Assembly: GCA_964430885.1 (NCBI GenBank)
Contig: CAYSHM010000001.1
Span: forward strand, 128,001-192,000
Source: an uncultured archaeon
GTDB taxonomy: Archaea > Thermoplasmatota > Penumbrarchaeia > JASLWR01
Reading direction: 5' to 3'
DNA: 64,000 nt
The notes beneath the pieces were generated by a model, which made no database searches, was not told the origin of the DNA, and was given only the letters and a program-made list of their open reading frames with translations. Below are positions 33,174 to 41,486 of the stretch, piece after piece; the first letter of the stretch is position 1, and each line of letters begins with the position of its first letter. The position numbers were made by a program, and so were the translations under genes.

Positions 33174-36100
33174 ATGTTTGGAGAAATTGTTCGTTTATTT
33201 TCAAGGAATAAAAATTTCCTTCTTCTTCTTATCTTACTTAATTTATTATTATCCATGTCACTATTCTACTACCCTGGCAAATCGAACCGATCGCCTTCTT
33301 CTTCTTCCGAATTAATCATTCACGAGAGCATTGACGTTAACATTCATAGGTCAATGGAGGATCACCTATGGCCCATGTTTCTTCGAGATAAGTTCCACAC
33401 CTCAAATCAAGAGATAAATACTAAAGGAATAACCGAACCGCGAATAAAGTGGGACAATCAGGAGAATCAGATTTCTCTTTCCACAGTTGCGGGAGATTTT
33501 CAGGGAAATGTAGTTGGAGATTCCCTTGAAGGATTGAATTTTTTGGTCTATGTTGTATCCAATATAACATCCAATTATGTCCAAATAGTTGAACCCGTGA
33601 CCGGGGAACAGACGTGGGTTATTGATGTTGAGGACCTTAACCAGACGACTGTAGGGGATAGAATTGCAGCTTCTCCCGCAGTGGCAGATTTCGATAAGGA
33701 CGGTAAGACCGATATAGCTTTCATTACCGATAATGATTTAACGGACACTGGAACCCTGTATGTTTTTGAGCCAATCATTGAATTTCACAATTCGAGTTTT
33801 AGTTGGGATGTTAATAATACAATAAATGAAAGGATTATGGAATATTCCCATCAGGGTGATACATTAGAGGCCTCAATAACCCTTTCCGACTTCAATAATG
33901 ACGGAAGGGAGGATATTGCGGCCATAATGGGTTTGGAGCTAGTTGTATTTGATGTATATGGAGATTCCCTGATATTTGAATATGATAAAGCTCTGGGCAA
34001 TATGGCAAGTGCACCTGTAATATACGCCATGTCAAACGGAGATTCAAGATGTGTTTTCACAACTCTTGATGGGGATGACCTCAACATATACATGGTTACA
34101 CATCAAGGAGATACAGCATGGAACCATACCATAGAGCTTTCATCTGTTCCAAATCTGCCTGTATCACTTCTTCCTTCACCATCTGTCGGAGAGATATCCC
34201 TTACTCAGGAGGGTAAAGAGATAGTAATTCTGAGCCCATTTGAATCGGGCAACGGAAATATGAGGATTTTCTCAAAAACAGGTGACGAAATATGGCAGAC
34301 TCCTACAACCGTAACAGGTCAGTTCGATGCTAGCCCCTGTTTGGCGGATATAGACGGGGATTCACTTATGGAGATAGGTGTAGTATCCTGGAGGAGTGTT
34401 GGAATCCCGCTTCATCTAGAGACAAACTTATATCTGATTGATGATACGGGAGATATTATATGGAGGATAATTGAGAATGAAAGCCTTCCTTCAGACCCAT
34501 CCATCATTTCACCGTCCTTTTGTCTAATCAACCAGGATCAAATCCCTGACCTGACTTTCATGACATCACGAAGAGTTATAGCGGTGGATTGTGTTAGTGG
34601 TAATCGAATGTGGGAAATATCATCACCAGGAAATAGGATTACTTCATCGCCAGCAATTGGAGATTTTGACAGAGATGATTTCTTAGATATAACGACGAAT
34701 GGATTTACAGTTTCAAACGCAATAATTGACCTTACCGTGAATGCCGAAGATATCACGATAGATAGCAATGTCATATACGATGGTGTAGAAACACCAGTTT
34801 CGGTTATGGTACGCAATCTTGGGAAACATGCTGCGGATTCCGTTTCAGTATATCTTTACGAAAATACAACATCCATGGATAATGTTACCTTAGGATCTAT
34901 CCCAGGTGATGACAGCAGGGAGGTCGAACTCGATTGGATACCCACGGGTCCCGGCCTTAAAGATATTACAGTATTCATTGATTTCAACGATACAATTCAG
35001 GAAACCGACGAAGAGAACAACAAGGCCAGCCTTTTCCTTGATATTGAGCAGGCTCTGCCAGATGTTGTAATCAGAAAAGTAGATCTAATAAGAGCGGACA
35101 AAGTGATTGTTGATAATAATAACACTCATATTATTGAGGATGAATCATCTCTAATCAATATTACTGTTGAGAATATGGGATTGAAAGATTTGGATATTTG
35201 CCCTGTTCTTATCAAGATAAATGATGATGATATATTCAATGGCAATATCAATAATATAACCACTGGTCAAGAACATTATTTTGAGGTAATACACAGTTTC
35301 GATGATGGCAATTTCATATTAAATATATCTTTGGATAATCAAAATGATATAATGGAATTCAATGATAGTAATAATTACTACAATAATGAGATCAATGTGC
35401 TGGATAACGACGCTTCCGGGAGATCATATCTTGTTGAAGGCTTTACCTATAATGGAGATTTCCAGGAAATCCCGGATGTGAAAGTGGAGCTGATTAATCC
35501 TATAACCCTTGAGAAGATATGGGATTATTCAGACAATGAAGGATATTACTCTCTGAATCTAGCAAATCTCTCACTGGGATATGTGGAAGGCCAAGAGATT
35601 ATAATTACTGCACGATATCAGAATGAAGGGTATGAGTCAGTAATTTATCCCTACTCGGAGGACGGTGGAATATTAAAGAATATACTCTTGGTAAAGAAAA
35701 CCGGGCCCTTTGATATCATAATATCGGGGAATAATACAAGGGAAGTGAATTCTGGCTCAAATATGACCTTTATTTTTCAAGTAGTTAATGAGGCCGAAGA
35801 AGAGATTCAGGTTTCTTTGATCGTCAATGGATTGGTGAATATCAATACTAATGAGGATTTGAATTGGTTTTATGAATTAAGTATGGATAGTATATCTTTG
35901 GATATTGGAGAATCGGATGAATTAAGCCTATTGATTTCTGTACCGAAGGACACATTTTTGGATGTCAGGGCCCAGATCGAAATATTGATATCACATAGTT
36001 CAACCAGCTACAACAGAAGTGAGTTTTTTTATGTCATACCAATTCACCCTGATTTCGACATATTACAGGAGGAACAGGACATATCAGCGGAAAAAATATC

Positions 36101-37610
36101 AGATAATGAATATGGCGGAGAACTGAATTTCACACTAAAAAATAATGGTCATTCTGAAGAGGACTATCAGTTGAAAGTAAATTATTCGGCTGAAAATATT
36201 CATTCAGTATTCCCAGAACTTGTCTCCGTGGAAGGCCAATTCGCGAGAAAGATTACAGTCATGATTTCTACCGATGATCTGGGGAATTTTCCTCTATATA
36301 TTAATATAACAGTAAGATCGCAAAAAACGGGCCTTTCCAAACACCTTTTATGTTCGATTGTTTACGGTGAATCAGTGTTGTCCATTTCTAATAATGATGT
36401 CACTTTTTCACCAGTCCGACCACAGCTGAATAAGCAATTTTCAATAAGATGTAAAATATTCAATAACGGAACTGCTGATTCAAAGGGATTTCCAGTTGTA
36501 TTATATGATGATGTCAATGGTTCTAGAATTCTATTGAGTACTGAGAATGTATCCAATCTTATTGCAGGTTCGTATGTATTGATAAGTTTTTCCTTGACCC
36601 TTGACGAATATGGTCTCTATTCTTTCTTTATCGAGGCCGATCCTGATAATATAGTGCAAGGCAATCATATCAACAAGGTCATCAAAAAGGACCTGGATTT
36701 ACGGCCTGACATTGTGATTTATTCAATGTCTTTGGTTCCTTTCAAAGGTAATTCAAATAATCTCTCCGAGGTCAACTCAAAGATGACACCTTATCTAAAA
36801 GTCAATTTAGGTAATCCTACTACTGTGGATTTAGTTCAGGATATCGATATCCTGATAAAAATGTCAGATCAGAACCTGAGCATTAGAGATGTTCATGTTG
36901 GCTTATATATTATCTCTGAGGAGATAGGGGCGGGAGAGAATAGCACAATATATATCTTGATTGATTTAACTGGATTTTCAGATTCAGAAGGTGATTTGCT
37001 ACTTTCTCTAGCAATAGATATAAATGGCAATGTGACTGAAATTGATGAGACTAATAATGATTATAAACAGAAGGTGAAGATCGGCAGAACCGGTACCGAT
37101 ACCGCATCATTAGAGTACAAATTAAAGGATGATGATATCTTGATAGCAGTGGGATTTATTGTACTGTTTGTAGTTATTTTACTTATTATACGCCGAACCA
37201 AGGAGAGAAAAGGAAAAAAGAGTGGCAGTAAAAAAGTGAAGCTCAGCAGTGAATCATCCGAGATGAAAACCTCAAAAATCAGCCGCTCGAAGGTGAAAAC
37301 AGATATAATTGCAAAACCAAGGGATGAAATCGCAGGCACCGAAATTGTTATTGAGGCCAATGAAGTACAGGATGTGAAGAATCATGCTAAAGTAGATCAC
37401 ACTATTGGTGATATATCGATGTCAAAATCAAAGAATCATGATATTTACGGACAAGATAATTTGGACCTCTTTGATGAGTTTTCCGATATGTTGGATGTGG
37501 ACTTTGACTATGATGATTTATCATCCAATCAATATGAAATAAGTCATGCGGAATCGCAGGGAGATTTTATAAATAATCTTCGTAATGAAATTAAAAAAAT
37601 GAAGTATTAA
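33174..37610 (+). CDS. Large surface protein: FG-GAP/PQQ-like propeller, multiple CARDB domains and a TM anchor
   Basis: WPMFLRDKFHT; SPAVADFDKDG repeats; IQETDEENNKA and VTEIDETNN CARDB motifs; TM helix near residue 1325. Confidence 0.85.
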   Translation: MFGEIVRLFSRNKNFLLLLILLNLLLSMSLFYYPGKSNRSPSSSSELIIHESIDVNIHRSMEDHLWPMFLRDKFHTSNQEINTKGITEPRIKWDNQENQISLSTVAGDFQGNVVGDSLEGLNFLVYVVSNITSNYVQIVEPVTGEQTWVIDVEDLNQTTVGDRIAASPAVADFDKDGKTDIAFITDNDLTDTGTLYVFEPIIEFHNSSFSWDVNNTINERIMEYSHQGDTLEASITLSDFNNDGREDIAAIMGLELVVFDVYGDSLIFEYDKALGNMASAPVIYAMSNGDSRCVFTTLDGDDLNIYMVTHQGDTAWNHTIELSSVPNLPVSLLPSPSVGEISLTQEGKEIVILSPFESGNGNMRIFSKTGDEIWQTPTTVTGQFDASPCLADIDGDSLMEIGVVSWRSVGIPLHLETNLYLIDDTGDIIWRIIENESLPSDPSIISPSFCLINQDQIPDLTFMTSRRVIAVDCVSGNRMWEISSPGNRITSSPAIGDFDRDDFLDITTNGFTVSNAIIDLTVNAEDITIDSNVIYDGVETPVSVMVRNLGKHAADSVSVYLYENTTSMDNVTLGSIPGDDSREVELDWIPTGPGLKDITVFIDFNDTIQETDEENNKASLFLDIEQALPDVVIRKVDLIRADKVIVDNNNTHIIEDESSLINITVENMGLKDLDICPVLIKINDDDIFNGNINNITTGQEHYFEVIHSFDDGNFILNISLDNQNDIMEFNDSNNYYNNEINVLDNDASGRSYLVEGFTYNGDFQEIPDVKVELINPITLEKIWDYSDNEGYYSLNLANLSLGYVEGQEIIITARYQNEGYESVIYPYSEDGGILKNILLVKKTGPFDIIISGNNTREVNSGSNMTFIFQVVNEAEEEIQVSLIVNGLVNINTNEDLNWFYELSMDSISLDIGESDELSLLISVPKDTFLDVRAQIEILISHSSTSYNRSEFFYVIPIHPDFDILQEEQDISAEKISDNEYGGELNFTLKNNGHSEEDYQLKVNYSAENIHSVFPELVSVEGQFARKITVMISTDDLGNFPLYINITVRSQKTGLSKHLLCSIVYGESVLSISNNDVTFSPVRPQLNKQFSIRCKIFNNGTADSKGFPVVLYDDVNGSRILLSTENVSNLIAGSYVLISFSLTLDEYGLYSFFIEADPDNIVQGNHINKVIKKDLDLRPDIVIYSMSLVPFKGNSNNLSEVNSKMTPYLKVNLGNPTTVDLVQDIDILIKMSDQNLSIRDVHVGLYIISEEIGAGENSTIYILIDLTGFSDSEGDLLLSLAIDINGNVTEIDETNNDYKQKVKIGRTGTDTASLEYKLKDDDILIAVGFIVLFVVILLIIRRTKERKGKKSGSKKVKLSSESSEMKTSKISRSKVKTDIIAKPRDEIAGTEIVIEANEVQDVKNHAKVDHTIGDISMSKSKNHDIYGQDNLDLFDEFSDMLDVDFDYDDLSSNQYEISHAESQGDFINNLRNEIKKMKY

Positions 37611-37690
37611 AAATAATTTTTTACAATTAATGAAGTTATATTCGGAATGAGGCCGATTAATTTTATTAAAGCCAATCGGGAATTAATTGA

Positions 37691-37708
37691 GCGGAACGTT
37701 TATAAATA
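37691..37708 (+). promoter_or_regulatory. Archaeal BRE-TATA promoter upstream of the ncRNA candidate
   Basis: GCGGAACG followed by TTTATAAATA (37699-37708), centred about 25 nt upstream of G37728. Confidence 0.6.
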
Positions 37709-37727
37709 TTAAATGCCTTATAAAATA

Positions 37728-37845
37728 GAGGACAGGGCCAAGGATATTTTTATTATCCCTTGCCTTCTTGTGTTCATTTACCGAACCCAGTAAATAACAC
37801 ATAAAACCCCCTCCCTCTGGCGAACTGGTCCTGTCCTGATTTTTG
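37728..37845 (+). ncRNA. Candidate structured small RNA of about 110 nt
   Basis: 12-bp terminal stem 37729-37740/37826-37837, internal hairpins, C-rich single strand, T tract after the stem and a TATA box upstream. Confidence 0.6.
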
Positions 37846-37973
37846 TTATTGTCTAGCTCCAGCAGTAAAATTTCTACAGATAATTAAATAAATTTGAATC
37901 CGACAACTAGAGCTGAATATATATATATATTATATATAAAAAAGAATTGGAGATAGGTATAGATCAACTGAAC

Positions 37974-40900
37974 CTATCTCTTCTTCTTGATGATTTTCTT
38001 TTCTGAGTAATAAGCACCGATATTAGTTTTGGTCATCTTGTTTACTTCATTTTCTTCATATCTTTCTAACTTGTGCTCGTTCACATCATAATCATCTTCG
38101 ATCCTTTCGGATCGGACATCCTGCTCTCCGCCCCTCCCTGGTTGGAGATTATAGGGGTCATTGTTCGGAACTGAACTGCTGTCTGTCGGGTCACTGTTCC
38201 CTCGGTACTCCGCTGAATTGTTCCAGGTATCGCCATCGCAGTCCTCATCTCCGTCTAGAACGCCATTTCCGTCAGAATCTTCTTTGGTAGGCCAGAACTT
38301 ACCTTTATAGAGATCGGGTGCGATGACATGACCAGTTGGCTTATAATCCGTTGTGAAGAGTTTTGTTGACAGATTAAATATTTCTTCCCATCCGCGGGCT
38401 AGAGTATCATTGTCCTCATAGGGGGAGGCCTTGGAGGCATTCAGGGGATAATCCATGAAGAAAATCTCCTTACCATCAGCAACAGAATCCCCGTCAACAT
38501 CATATTTATTTGGATTGAGGGTTACATCACTTCCGTTCACAGGGTCCCAATTTCCGTATTTGTATTCCATTTCCGAGGTCAAGGGATGATAATATTCCTT
38601 GACCATGGCTTTTCCGGTCGCACCATCAATCTCGTTGGGGTCTATCATATAATAAGTAGCTCCATCGGGATACCAGACCCCATCCTGATAATCCAAGGAC
38701 CATAAGGAATCGGTCATTTCAACTGAAACGTCTTCAATACTGTTCTTTTCTGCACTCCATTGCCTATATTGAACAGTGCCTGAAATCTCCACATCCTCTA
38801 TTCTCCCAGATGATTCATTCCATACGTCCAGCTCTACAGTTTCTCCCTTTTTCAATCCCATGGAATTCGCTTCGGTAGGATCAAGATACCATCCCCATTT
38901 TCCAGAGGTAGGTTTGTAAACCCAAGCTCGGTATTTAATTTCCCATCCGTCAGGAAGTTCATCACCGTCTGAATCCTCATCAAGAGGATCGGTGGTATTA
39001 TCCATTTCCTGGAAATTGTTCAGTCCGTCATTATCTGGATCGTCTTCGCCATCATATGGGTAAAGGGGATTGATTACGTATACTGCCGGTAATTCATCAT
39101 CCACCCTTCCGTCTCCATTGATGTCCAGGAACGATTCCCAACTGCCTGTGAATGGCCGGTCATAATGATTCTGGGAGTAGCTGGGGTCGAACCATACCTC
39201 GGCACCGTGAAACATTGTATAGTACCGGATGATGCTGATCTGCCTAGTCCTTCCATGGATGGCCTCCCATCCATCAAGTAAGCCGTCGTCATCAGTATCT
39301 GGATCTCTAGGGTCTGATGAATCAATTGTTTCATCATGAATATTCTTGTAAGGGTAGAAATCAGTCTTTATCTCTTTTCCATCCAGCAGTTGGTCGAAAT
39401 CGGTATCTGGCAGGGTTGGATGAGTGATATATCCATATGTGGAATAAACCTCTTCAGCATCCTCCAGTTCATCGAAATCAGTATCTTTATTGCATGGGTC
39501 AGGGTAAACCCAGCCGAAATCCTCCATTTTCTTGCCGAAAACCTCTTCTACATCCTGAAGTCCATCTAGATCGGTATCAGGGTTTGAAGCATTAGTGGGA
39601 TGGAAAGTTAGGCTTCCATCATGGGTTTGACCATTCACTTCTTCCCAATCATCCAAGACTCTAGAAGCGTTCTTCTCGTCAAAGTCCATATCCGTATCGG
39701 CATTGGATGCGTTGGTATAGTAAAGGGAAACGAATCCTTCTACAGTATAATATACGCCATCGATGAGTTCTCCGTAGAAACCTTCAAGAAGTTCCACACC
39801 ATCTATTAATCCGTCTCCGTCGGTATCAGGGTTATTTGGGTTTGTGCTGTATGGATACAGCTCAGTTCCGGTGTATTCTAGAAGATTGGTGAGGTTATCC
39901 CTTTCAAATATGTATTCGCCGGGCACCGCGATAGAATCTCCATTCTCATCGATCCATCTGGTATCTACATCCAAGTCGGAATCAGCTACAGTTGGATCTA
40001 AACTTGTCACGTAATAATTGAAATCATTCGGGCCATAAGATGAATCATAGTTGATGAGTAAAGCATTAATGGCTTCCCATCCATCAGGAATCATATCCCC
40101 GTCAGTATCGCTGATAAGGGGGTCTGTTGATTCCCACCATTTTTCATCTGGTGAAGGATAGGCAAATTCAAGATAATTAGAAAGGCCGTCATCATCAAGA
40201 TCCAGGAATCTATCGGACGCGTTAAGGGGATCCAGACCATAGTTTTTCTCCCAAGCATCCCACATGGCATCTCCGTCGGTATCGGGATCTATTGGGCTAG
40301 TATCTTCATGATGGACTTCCCACCAATCATAGAACTCATACTCATTGCCGTCAGGTGTTTTGAAGGTATCTCCATCTGTATCCCAGTTAAGGGGATCGGT
40401 TCCGGCCAAATATTCCTCAAGATTGGTCATTCCATCAGGCCTGTATTCTTTCTGCCCTACATATTGACTGGAAACCCTTTTGTTATTGCTTGCGATCGAG
40501 ACATGGCTGTAGGTTTCAATAATGGAAAGATCCATGTCTAGATCGGCATCATTAGGGTCCATAGGGTTAAGTGAAAAATTATAGTCGAAAATCTCATAGT
40601 TCTCGGAATTCTCATTGAACTGATATATTGTCACGTTTTTCTCAGTTCTCCAGTAGGTGGCACCATGCCATTTTTCCTCTGGCCGTTCATTCCCACCGTG
40701 GTAAAATTCATAGAAATCACCCATGCCATCATTATCCGAATCAAAAGAAGAGGGATTTGTAGTGGGGTAAATTGGTGTTCCCAGGTGTATCTGCCTCCAT
40801 GGGTCGTAGTCATTATAATCAAAGTTCTGGAGGGTGGCAGGGTTAATGTGCTCATCACACAGGTGGAATCCTCCCTGTTCGGCAATTTCCCTGAGAATCT

Positions 40901-41486
40901 TTGGTCTCTCACTTTCCAGGGTAAGGTCGTGCATCCTCTCTCTACCTATTATCTTCTCAATGCTTCCGTTACAGTATTCCTCCAGATTGGTTAGGTTTTC
41001 ACCGCCGTCCCAGTCTGCAGTATCCGAGAAATGAGCGTTCAATGCACCTGTCTTTGAAAGATCTAATCCATCACCATCAGGATTTGCCCCTGCATCCGGT
41101 ATGTTTGGATCGATTGTGAATTTGCCTGTTACTGGGTTTTTAACCATATAAAATGCTTCCCATCCATCCATCATACCATCACTGTCAGTGTCGGGATTTG
41201 AAGCGTTTGTTCCATAAACATAATTTTCCTCAATATCACTAAGTTTATCTGGTCTATCCAGTTCATTCTCGTCCTGAACGCCGTCTCCGTCATCATCCCA
41301 ATAATCTGAATCGGCCATTATTATTCCTGAAGCGCTAGCCACGGCTTCTTCCCATGGGTCAACGTCTTCAGCTTCCGAATAATCGCCTCCTCCTACACCG
41401 CCCAATATGTTTATTACAGCAAAACCTAAGCCGGCCAATAATAGAAAACCAACTAGGCTCAAGGTAACTCCTTTGACTACGTCCAT
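37974..41486 (-). CDS. N-terminally anchored protein with many thrombospondin type-3-like Ca-binding DxDxDG repeats
   Basis: Many TNPxxxDTDGDGxxDxxE-type repeats; N-terminal TM helix. Confidence 0.85.
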   Translation of the reverse strand: MDVVKGVTLSLVGFLLLAGLGFAVINILGGVGGGDYSEAEDVDPWEEAVASASGIIMADSDYWDDDGDGVQDENELDRPDKLSDIEENYVYGTNASNPDTDSDGMMDGWEAFYMVKNPVTGKFTIDPNIPDAGANPDGDGLDLSKTGALNAHFSDTADWDGGENLTNLEEYCNGSIEKIIGRERMHDLTLESERPKILREIAEQGGFHLCDEHINPATLQNFDYNDYDPWRQIHLGTPIYPTTNPSSFDSDNDGMGDFYEFYHGGNERPEEKWHGATYWRTEKNVTIYQFNENSENYEIFDYNFSLNPMDPNDADLDMDLSIIETYSHVSIASNNKRVSSQYVGQKEYRPDGMTNLEEYLAGTDPLNWDTDGDTFKTPDGNEYEFYDWWEVHHEDTSPIDPDTDGDAMWDAWEKNYGLDPLNASDRFLDLDDDGLSNYLEFAYPSPDEKWWESTDPLISDTDGDMIPDGWEAINALLINYDSSYGPNDFNYYVTSLDPTVADSDLDVDTRWIDENGDSIAVPGEYIFERDNLTNLLEYTGTELYPYSTNPNNPDTDGDGLIDGVELLEGFYGELIDGVYYTVEGFVSLYYTNASNADTDMDFDEKNASRVLDDWEEVNGQTHDGSLTFHPTNASNPDTDLDGLQDVEEVFGKKMEDFGWVYPDPCNKDTDFDELEDAEEVYSTYGYITHPTLPDTDFDQLLDGKEIKTDFYPYKNIHDETIDSSDPRDPDTDDDGLLDGWEAIHGRTRQISIIRYYTMFHGAEVWFDPSYSQNHYDRPFTGSWESFLDINGDGRVDDELPAVYVINPLYPYDGEDDPDNDGLNNFQEMDNTTDPLDEDSDGDELPDGWEIKYRAWVYKPTSGKWGWYLDPTEANSMGLKKGETVELDVWNESSGRIEDVEISGTVQYRQWSAEKNSIEDVSVEMTDSLWSLDYQDGVWYPDGATYYMIDPNEIDGATGKAMVKEYYHPLTSEMEYKYGNWDPVNGSDVTLNPNKYDVDGDSVADGKEIFFMDYPLNASKASPYEDNDTLARGWEEIFNLSTKLFTTDYKPTGHVIAPDLYKGKFWPTKEDSDGNGVLDGDEDCDGDTWNNSAEYRGNSDPTDSSSVPNNDPYNLQPGRGGEQDVRSERIEDDYDVNEHKLERYEENEVNKMTKTNIGAYYSEKKIIKKKR

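Follow-up and report, generated by a model that had tools for sequence, protein, structure and literature searches.

A candidate structured RNA gene with an exposed C-rich strand in a family of uncultured marine archaea

The locus considered here raises the question of whether a GC-richer patch in an AT-rich intergenic gap is a gene for a small RNA (sRNA) and, if it is, how such an RNA would act. The window, by which is meant the whole 64-kb stretch of archaeal DNA that was analysed, contains at this point a gap that measures 363 nt on reading the sequence. A preliminary description had proposed that the gap holds an sRNA gene with its own promoter and with an exposed strand complementary to Shine-Dalgarno (SD) sequences. 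The GC-richer patch that it described is real, GC content in 50-nt segments being 0.40-0.48 in the patch vs 0.14-0.28 in the flanks. The features of the locus are listed below, P1 to P4 denoting the helices of the predicted fold.

33174-37610, + strand: upstream neighbour, a CARDB/FG-GAP surface protein gene, co-directional with the RNA
37699-37706, + strand: TATA box TTTATAAA, promoter of the RNA gene, 23 nt before G37730, the first G of P1
37729-37839, + strand: predicted transcript, a structured non-coding RNA of ~110 nt, placed by its fold and by matches to covariance models R1 and R2
37729-37740, + strand: 5' strand of P1, AGGACAGGGCCA, a 12-bp closing stem with one G-U pair
37742-37758, + strand: P2, hairpin GGAUA/UAUCC with a 7-nt loop (GGATA at 37742-46, TATCC at 37754-58)
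37760-37764, + strand: 5' strand of P3, UUGCC, pairing with 37819-37823
37769-37801, + strand: P4, a variable hairpin arm of 12 bp with one bulged C and an 8-nt loop
37807-37817, + strand: C-rich strand CCCCCTCCCTC (as RNA, CCCCCUCCCUC), predicted to be exposed and holding a CCUCC anti-Shine-Dalgarno core
37819-37823, + strand: 3' strand of P3, GGCGA, partner of 37760-37764
37826-37837, + strand: 3' strand of P1, TGGTCCTGTCCT (as RNA, UGGUCCUGUCCU), partner of 37729-37740
37840-37844, + strand: oligo-T tract TTTTT directly after P1, a likely archaeal terminator
37974-41486, - strand: downstream neighbour, encoding a 1170-aa surface protein with calcium-binding-type repeats, convergent to the RNA

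The TATA box upstream and the T tract downstream, both pointed out in the preliminary description, are present, and their layout is kept in all four copies of the element, namely that of the window and those of three related genomes (G001-G003). The TATA boxes of the three homologues read TTTAAATA or TTTATATA and stand exactly 22 nt before their first G, which gives a spacing of 22-23 nt from TATA box to the first G of P1 across the four copies. At this genome's SRP RNA gene, 21 nt separate the TATA box, TTAATATA, from the point at which the Rfam match begins. Since the spacing is fixed in all copies and matches that of the SRP RNA gene, transcription should begin at the foot of P1. Oligo-T tracts are established terminators of archaeal RNA polymerase, and in each of the three homologues a run of 4-5 T lies within 0-2 nt of P1. 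The ends given for the transcript are those implied by the TATA spacing and the T tract. Promoter and terminator are separate from the neighbouring genes, as in the class of trans-acting sRNAs that mask ribosome-binding sites (RBSs). Metatranscriptome contigs from two small runs cover only 38067-38544 of the interval 36800-39200; these lie inside the neighbouring gene and are uninformative for a small RNA.

Folding of 37729-37839 on the + strand with RNAfold gave a minimum free energy (MFE) of -38.8 kcal/mol (z -5.63), a stability reached by none of 200 dinucleotide shuffles, and the MFE and centroid structures both have the four-helix architecture P1-P4. The elements named in the preliminary description (ends pairing over 12 bp, hairpin GGATA/TATCC, stem TTGCC/GGCGA and the 12-bp hairpin at 37769-37801) lie where it had placed them and are those of the MFE fold. 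The single G-U pair of P1 likewise works only on the + strand, as had been noted, and becomes a C-A mismatch if read on the minus strand. The minus strand of the element also folds well (-41.2 kcal/mol, z -4.79), so that fold energy alone cannot choose the strand. The 12-bp closing stem was rejected as evidence by itself on shuffle counts: stems of this length (G-U allowed) closing 90-140 nt number 35 in the window vs 22, 36, and 38 in three mononucleotide shuffles. As such a stem is common by chance, significance rests on the whole fold and its conservation, not on the stem.

Among the four copies, the 3' strand of P1 is almost invariant, and a C-to-U change in G002 leaves a G-U pair. P2 keeps its GGAU/AUCC core in all four, with a loop of 3 to 9 nt. 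P3 is fully paired in the alignment of the four sequences (A5; 20 of 20 cells, none varying), its 3' strand reading GGCAA in the homologues and the extra G being an insertion; it is nevertheless the least secure helix, because in the three homologues the energy model favours an extended P2 over it. P4 is not alignable column by column, identities being 20-21 of 45-50 between the window copy and the homologues and 20-32 of 45-50 between genera; a hairpin forms at this position in every homologue despite the sequence change. The C-rich strand, which the preliminary description held to be exposed, is predicted to be unpaired in each of the four copies, the mean unpaired probability of the decamer being 0.97 in the window copy and 0.86-0.87 in the homologues. 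A predicted accessible anti-RBS stretch of this kind is a feature of trans-acting sRNAs that mask RBSs.

The element is single-copy, one significant match being found in the 3.13-Mb genome (44 contigs, 91.6% complete), and the possibility of a MITE-like or other repeat, which the preliminary description had asked to be checked, is thereby ruled out. A BLAST search of 60 related genomes gave significant matches (E 1e-7 to 2e-5) only in G001-G003, the three other genomes in the GTDB family of the window's genome (G000), so that the homologues that had been called for exist in all three. These matches span the 3' half at 83-85% identity, and between the window copy and G001 only a stretch of ~51 nt was aligned by BLAST, at 83% identity. 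The near-invariant 3' half common to the four copies reads CCCCUCCCUCUGGC(G)AACUGGUCCUGUCC, with CCCCUCCCUCUGGC invariant in all of them. In the homologues the TATA box is followed at exactly 22 nt by GGGCAGGACC, the short GGAU/AUCC hairpin, and CCUUGCCUUCUU; then come a variable hairpin, CACAUCCCAUCCCCUCCCUCUGGCAACUGGU(C/U)CUGUCC, and 4-5 T. They adopt the architecture of the window copy, with fold z scores of -5.4, -5.8, and -3.5.

Covariance model R1, built from all four sequences, scores the family members at 95-144 bits (the three other genomes at 134-144 bits) and matches 37728-37843 in the window. It finds one copy each in G000, G001, and G002, and G003 has a second match at E 0.55. No convincing match was obtained over the other 33 genomes of the class (37 in all) or over a 151-genome sample of the phylum. 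Outside the family, the strongest match (G024, 22.7 bits) was rejected: it lies inside a 270-aa ORF, has no TATA box, and contains several mispairs in P1. BLAST matches in G035 and G025 (short, 100% identity) and in G036 fall in gene-like sequence with no trace of the element's architecture and were set aside as chance. Model R2, built from the three relatives alone with the window sequence left out, recovers 37728-37842 at 46.5 bits (E 4.2e-11) as its sole match on both strands of the window, which is an independent check of the family. An exact-pattern scan of public genome contigs returned two loci, apparently those of G003 and G001, and the same scan returned none in viral contigs and 26 in metagenome contigs, of which only L058 fits the model. 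L058 is identical to G001, and the distinct sequences therefore total four. The RNA is so far known from a single family of uncultured marine archaea.

The genes flanking the element vary among the four genomes, and the RNA is retained. Downstream, G000, G001, and G003 have orthologous convergent genes; the window and G001 versions, compared directly, share 65% identity over 405 aa, and the G003 orthologue was judged from an ORF translation. The downstream gene of G002 is a different one and is co-directional with the RNA. A conserved 123-aa gene that matches no Pfam family lies divergently upstream of the RNA in G001-G003, and its orthologue in the window's genome lies ~55 kb from the RNA, outside the window.

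Standard pairs fill 96.3% of the 108 pair cells in the model-based alignment, vs 36-56% when the 3' partners are slid by 1-3 columns. P1 is paired in 47 of 48 cells (97.9%) across the four sequences, and four of its positions alternate between G-U, A-U, and G-C through one-sided changes. The G-U pairs of P1 are legal only on the + strand and would turn into C-A mismatches on the minus strand, which is evidence for a gene on the + strand. The covariation that the preliminary description had asked for is thin, since there are only four distinct sequences: among 27 pairs there are one two-sided and five one-sided changes, no covariation is seen in P2 or P3, and the covariation measures obtained are equalled by 40-88 of 500 column shuffles.

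Comparison with known RNAs bore out the suggestion that the family is an unrecognised one, the locus having no Rfam match at or above a gathering score. Rfam 15 at gathering thresholds returned only three tRNAs over the whole window, all of them elsewhere, and ARAGORN agrees. At E up to 10, the interval 37550-38000 gave five weak matches of 11-21 bits vs gathering scores of 60-100, two of which, at 15.4 and 11 bits on the minus strand, overlap the element. The homologous loci L033-L035, searched at E up to 5, gave only a tRNA and weak chance matches, among them one to ROSE_2 (21.5 bits vs a cut-off of 65; L033 1605-1688) that touches the 3' end of the element. 5S rRNA was rejected as an identity: the 5S rRNA of the genome lies elsewhere (70.4 bits), the locus has no RF00001 match at E up to 10, and, unlike in 5S rRNA, the arms are very unequal (17 nt for P2 vs ~64 nt for P3 plus P4). 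SRP RNA (155 bits) and RNase P RNA (184.6 bits) are also found elsewhere in the genome, above their cut-offs. With all three accounted for, the element is not a diverged housekeeping RNA.

Y RNAs and bacterial Y-like RNAs form part of Ro60 (Rsr) ribonucleoproteins. The element resembles them in its length of ~100 nt, in ends paired in a long stem, in a 3' oligo-U, and in a pyrimidine-rich internal loop adjoining the 3' strand. Unlike theirs, its genome has no detected TROVE (Ro/Rsr) protein, PF05731 having no match in the 91.6% of the genome represented, with both controls (Deinococcus radiodurans and Bacteroides thetaiotaomicron) positive; nor did the Y_RNA model match the locus at E up to 10. 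The idea of a Ro/Y-RNA-like particle fails for want of a TROVE protein. H/ACA guide RNAs carry an ACA directly 3' of the lower stem and a K-turn or K-loop in the upper stem, and C/D box sRNAs carry C (RUGAUGA) and D (CUGA) boxes near their ends. Read directly, the nucleotides after P1 are UGA, AUU, UUU, and CAU in the four copies; CUGA stands after P1 in no copy but that of the window, and the sole UGAUG is in the loop of P4 in G001. Both identities were rejected, no K-turn, ACA box, or conserved C/D boxes being visible on reading the four copies. As judged by sequence comparison, the element belongs to no described family.

The complementarity of the C-rich strand to RBS motifs used in the window, as claimed in the preliminary description, stands in part. 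The three examples exist (GGAGGA before 10106, AGAGGGAA before 48453, and, with no gap to the ATG at 56317, GAGGGG), but the SD consensus genome-wide is AGGAGGTGA, at about -13 to -9, and shares only GGAGG with the complement of the strand. Upstream of long ORFs, AGGAG, GGAGG, GAGGT, AGGTG, and GGTGA peak in that order from -15 to -9, and the 3' end of the 16S rRNA is GGAUCACCUCCU; this use of SD sequences, together with the 16S tail, makes a base-pairing role at purine-rich leaders plausible. The canonical SD AGGAGGUGA forms only about 5 contiguous bp with the C-rich strand.

The more specific proposal of an anti-Shine-Dalgarno translational repressor did not gain from the search for targets, four tests showing no excess over controls. 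No complement of the C-rich strand of at least 12 nt occurs in trans elsewhere in the genome, and 11-mer complements in trans number 12, about the chance level (roughly 24 for uniform composition). The mean duplex energy is -11.9 over 4290 crudely defined initiation regions and equally -11.9 over coding segments, with five shuffled strands giving -11.2 to -12.6. A wobble-tolerant pattern, YRGRGGGRGGGG, occurs 8, 9, 12, and 15 times in the four genomes vs 9, 8, 31, and 17 times for its reversed control, and starts preceded by a complement of at least 8 nt number 149 vs 163 for the reversed control. No conserved target site was found among the relatives with crude ORF-based gene calls and one genome scanned fully. 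A 14-nt perfect complement in G001 (intergenic, L098 ~1499-1514) is absent from G000, G002, and G003, may be due to chance, and was not retained as a target. This G001 complement adjoins an SD-like AGGTGA and a 14-codon frame. Crude as they are, the target tests lower the anti-SD reading.

Several alternatives to a trans-acting RNA have to be weighed, beginning with those that would deny an RNA gene altogether. That the conservation reflects DNA-level signals of the neighbours or recent common ancestry, with a fortuitous fold and no functional RNA, would fit the restriction of the element to four related genomes, its statistically weak covariation, and the chance frequency of its closing stem. 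We consider it improbable, as the window copy and that of G001 have diverged and yet architecture, TATA spacing, and T tract are kept in all four, the flanking genes differ between genomes, the fold z scores lie between -3.5 and -5.8 in the four sequences, and every one-sided change in P1 preserves pairing on the + strand only. Open frames do exist (L033, 85 aa; L034, 81 aa; and, in the window, a hydrophobic one of 26 aa), and a small protein could in principle be encoded by the 26-codon frame from ATG 37714 or by the 81-85-aa frames of G001 and G003. This is scarcely credible, however, given that the two conserved blocks, 5' and 3', stand in frame relations that differ from genome to genome (1, 2, 2, and 0, mod 3), that each of the three frames of the window copy is interrupted by stops inside the element, and that conservation runs in contiguous blocks with no three-base periodicity. 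The ATG at 37714 sits between the TATA box and the predicted start and would therefore not be transcribed. With TATA box and T tract in all four copies and no reading frame conserved across them, the original suggestion of a non-coding RNA gene with its own promoter is upheld; 37729-37839 is in all likelihood an expressed RNA gene on the + strand, and the patch very probably holds a genuine sRNA gene, new and confined to one archaeal family.

Accepting an RNA gene leaves the question of its action. The RNA may be a scaffold or decoy for protein in a ribonucleoprotein rather than a partner of mRNA, a possible if somewhat unlikely reading in which the invariant junction, the 3' strand of P1, and the C-rich strand would form the platform. 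About 40 contiguous nt are near-invariant, with CCUUGCCUUCU conserved in addition on the 5' side, which is conservation beyond a short seed; peripheral P2 and P4 are variable in sequence as well as in length, the pairing of the two ends would give a closed, stable shape, and the four target tests are all negative. Indeed, the conserved ~40-nt block, comprising the 3' strand of P1 and the junction, resembles a protein-binding or tertiary core no less than it does a seed. Against protein binding, no partner is linked to the RNA, given the distance of the family-less 123-aa gene in the window's genome, and the TROVE protein and the motifs of guide RNAs sought above are lacking. It is more doubtful that the RNA acts as a decoy of the 3' tail of small-subunit rRNA, although the exposed strand of G001-G003, AUCCCCUCCC, is identical at 8 of 10 positions to the 16S 3' end AUCACCUCCU of the window's genome, and that of the window copy, ACCCCCUCC, at 7 of 9 to AUCACCUCC. 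Held in a closed fold, such a mimic could titrate SD-led mRNAs globally or else sequester a protein, for example a KH protein of the Dim2/Pno1 type, by which the anti-SD tail is recognised as ribosomes mature; were either true, the RNA would be a family-specific regulator of translation capacity, not of single genes. Local action on the convergent gene 37974-41486, by transcriptional interference or pairing with its mRNA, would agree with the convergent arrangement at orthologues of that gene in three of the four genomes and with the duplex energy of its initiation region CCAGGAGGGAAUAAC with the strand (-19.5 kcal/mol, near the 5th percentile of all, -20.3). It is quite improbable, because the downstream gene of G002 is different and co-directional, the initiation region UUCGGAGGCUUCGAAU of G001 and G003 shares only GGAGG with the complement of the strand, and the T tract of the RNA and T-rich runs past the stop of the neighbour argue against overlapping transcripts. 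Pairing with the initiation region of the neighbouring gene, unconserved in G001 and G003, was rejected as the target.

The favoured explanation, an independent structured RNA gene of ~110 nt whose product acts in trans through the exposed strand, is proposed tentatively, its full statement having somewhat less than an even chance of being right. Archaeal RNA polymerase would start ~23 nt past the TATA box, at the foot of P1, and would stop at the oligo-T tract directly after it; with both ends so placed, the transcript would have its 5' end paired with its 3' end. On P1 would sit the short hairpin P2 and a long arm made of P3 and the variable P4, with P3 keeping the invariant pyrimidine strand CCCCUCCCUCU open. 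This exposed strand may pair in trans with G-rich stretches of mRNAs, the obvious candidate sites being purine-rich ribosome-binding regions with GGAGG or GAGGG, where it could alter translation or stability of the mRNA in the manner of sRNA154 and sRNA41 of Methanosarcina mazei. As a mechanism, base-pairing by way of the C-rich strand is itself a tentative choice, with rather less than half of our confidence behind it.

In M. mazei, sRNA154 and sRNA41 are archaeal intergenic sRNAs in which an exposed loop masks the RBS of target mRNAs (PMC5867862). The present element shares with them an archaeal host, an intergenic position, a narrow taxonomic range, and, as far as predicted here, independent transcription, a stable fold, and an exposed anti-RBS sequence. 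Unlike them, it belongs to another phylum, has no sequence or Rfam relationship to either, has its strand in an internal loop within a closed fold of four helices, and is known from its sequence alone. Among bacteria, RsaE/RoxS of Firmicutes has C-rich exposed loops that pair with Shine-Dalgarno regions. Like RsaE/RoxS, the present RNA is short, with an unpaired C-rich motif complementary to G-rich SD sequences and a 3' terminator, whereas RsaE/RoxS is bacterial, uses rho-independent terminator hairpins, and has several C-rich motifs in each molecule, and the present RNA is without any Rfam match. By analogy, then, the closest counterparts of the element in action would be those intergenic sRNAs, archaeal and bacterial, that are restricted to a lineage and present an exposed anti-RBS strand.

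A full-text literature search found no description of such an RNA in marine Thermoplasmatota, and the regulatory RNAs of these uncultured archaea are essentially uncharted. Lineage-specific sRNAs are to be expected, and in that sense the finding is an ordinary though solid one, with no sign of an unusual mechanism. Its value lies in a candidate open to testing, for which the ends are predicted precisely, the fold is defined, and an invariant, exposed strand resembles the sequence with which the ribosome docks on mRNA.

The RNA gene is flanked on both sides by genes for very large predicted surface proteins, since the 1478-aa product of the upstream gene carries CARDB domains and FG-GAP repeats. 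The surrounding features of the window are as follows.

33174-37610, + strand: upstream gene, 1478 aa, with three CARDB domains plus FG-GAP repeats
37913-37947: (AT)n-like run adjoining the inverted repeat
37942-37958 / 37972-37988: 17-nt inverted repeat, 82% complementary
37974-41486, - strand: convergent gene downstream of the RNA, 1170 aa

The convergent gene product matched no Pfam family at an E-value of 0.001 or better; it has a hydrophobic segment at its N-terminus, is 65% identical to its orthologue in G001 (one of three other genomes of the same GTDB family, G001-G003, that carry the RNA) and is rich throughout in D-x-D-x-D-G type repeats (DTDGDG, DSDNDG), which we take to resemble calcium-binding thrombospondin-type-3 repeats. 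The 3' part of the gene (38067-38544) was found in contigs from two seawater metatranscriptome runs. Its stop codon is overlapped by the 17-nt inverted repeat, which may be the terminator region of the convergent gene.

In G001-G003, the gene upstream of the RNA, in divergent orientation, encodes a conserved 123-aa protein, and a tRNA gene lies just past it.

L033 (G001) 906-1337, - strand: 123-aa protein gene
L035 (G002) 650-1021, - strand: 123-aa protein gene
L034 (G003) 1856-2227, + strand: 123-aa protein gene
C1:221137-221505 (window's genome), - strand: orthologue of the 123-aa protein

The orthologue in the window's genome is 72% identical and is encoded 55 kb away from the RNA. The protein matched no Pfam family; it contains an E-x-K stretch (VETCK) that is, in our assumption, reminiscent of PD-(D/E)XK nucleases.

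For 1928 long ORFs on all contigs of the window's genome, the Shine-Dalgarno 5-mers AGGAG, GGAGG, GAGGT, AGGTG, and GGTGA peaked in register at about -15 to -9 relative to the first ATG; a long Shine-Dalgarno sequence (AGGAGGTGA) is therefore in wide use by this archaeon, the 16S rRNA of which ends 3' in GGAUCACCUCCU. The invariant, exposed C-rich strand of the RNA has a perfect 14-nt complement in G001, the intergenic GCCAGAGGGAGGGG (contig C102, L098 about 1499-1514), followed downstream by a Shine-Dalgarno-like AGGTGA and then a 14-codon frame. By rough estimate, about 0.03 such complements per genome are expected by chance, and no conserved counterpart was found in the window's genome, G002, or G003.

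Upstream of the RNA in G001-G003, about 35 nt extending up to and including its TATA box (ATCATCTTTGATAAATGTAAGAAAATATTTA...; L033 about 1449-1481 and equivalent positions in L034 and L035) are near-identical; the window copy of the gene is without this block. Such conservation exceeds the needs of a core promoter, and the block may represent a regulator binding site in these three genomes.
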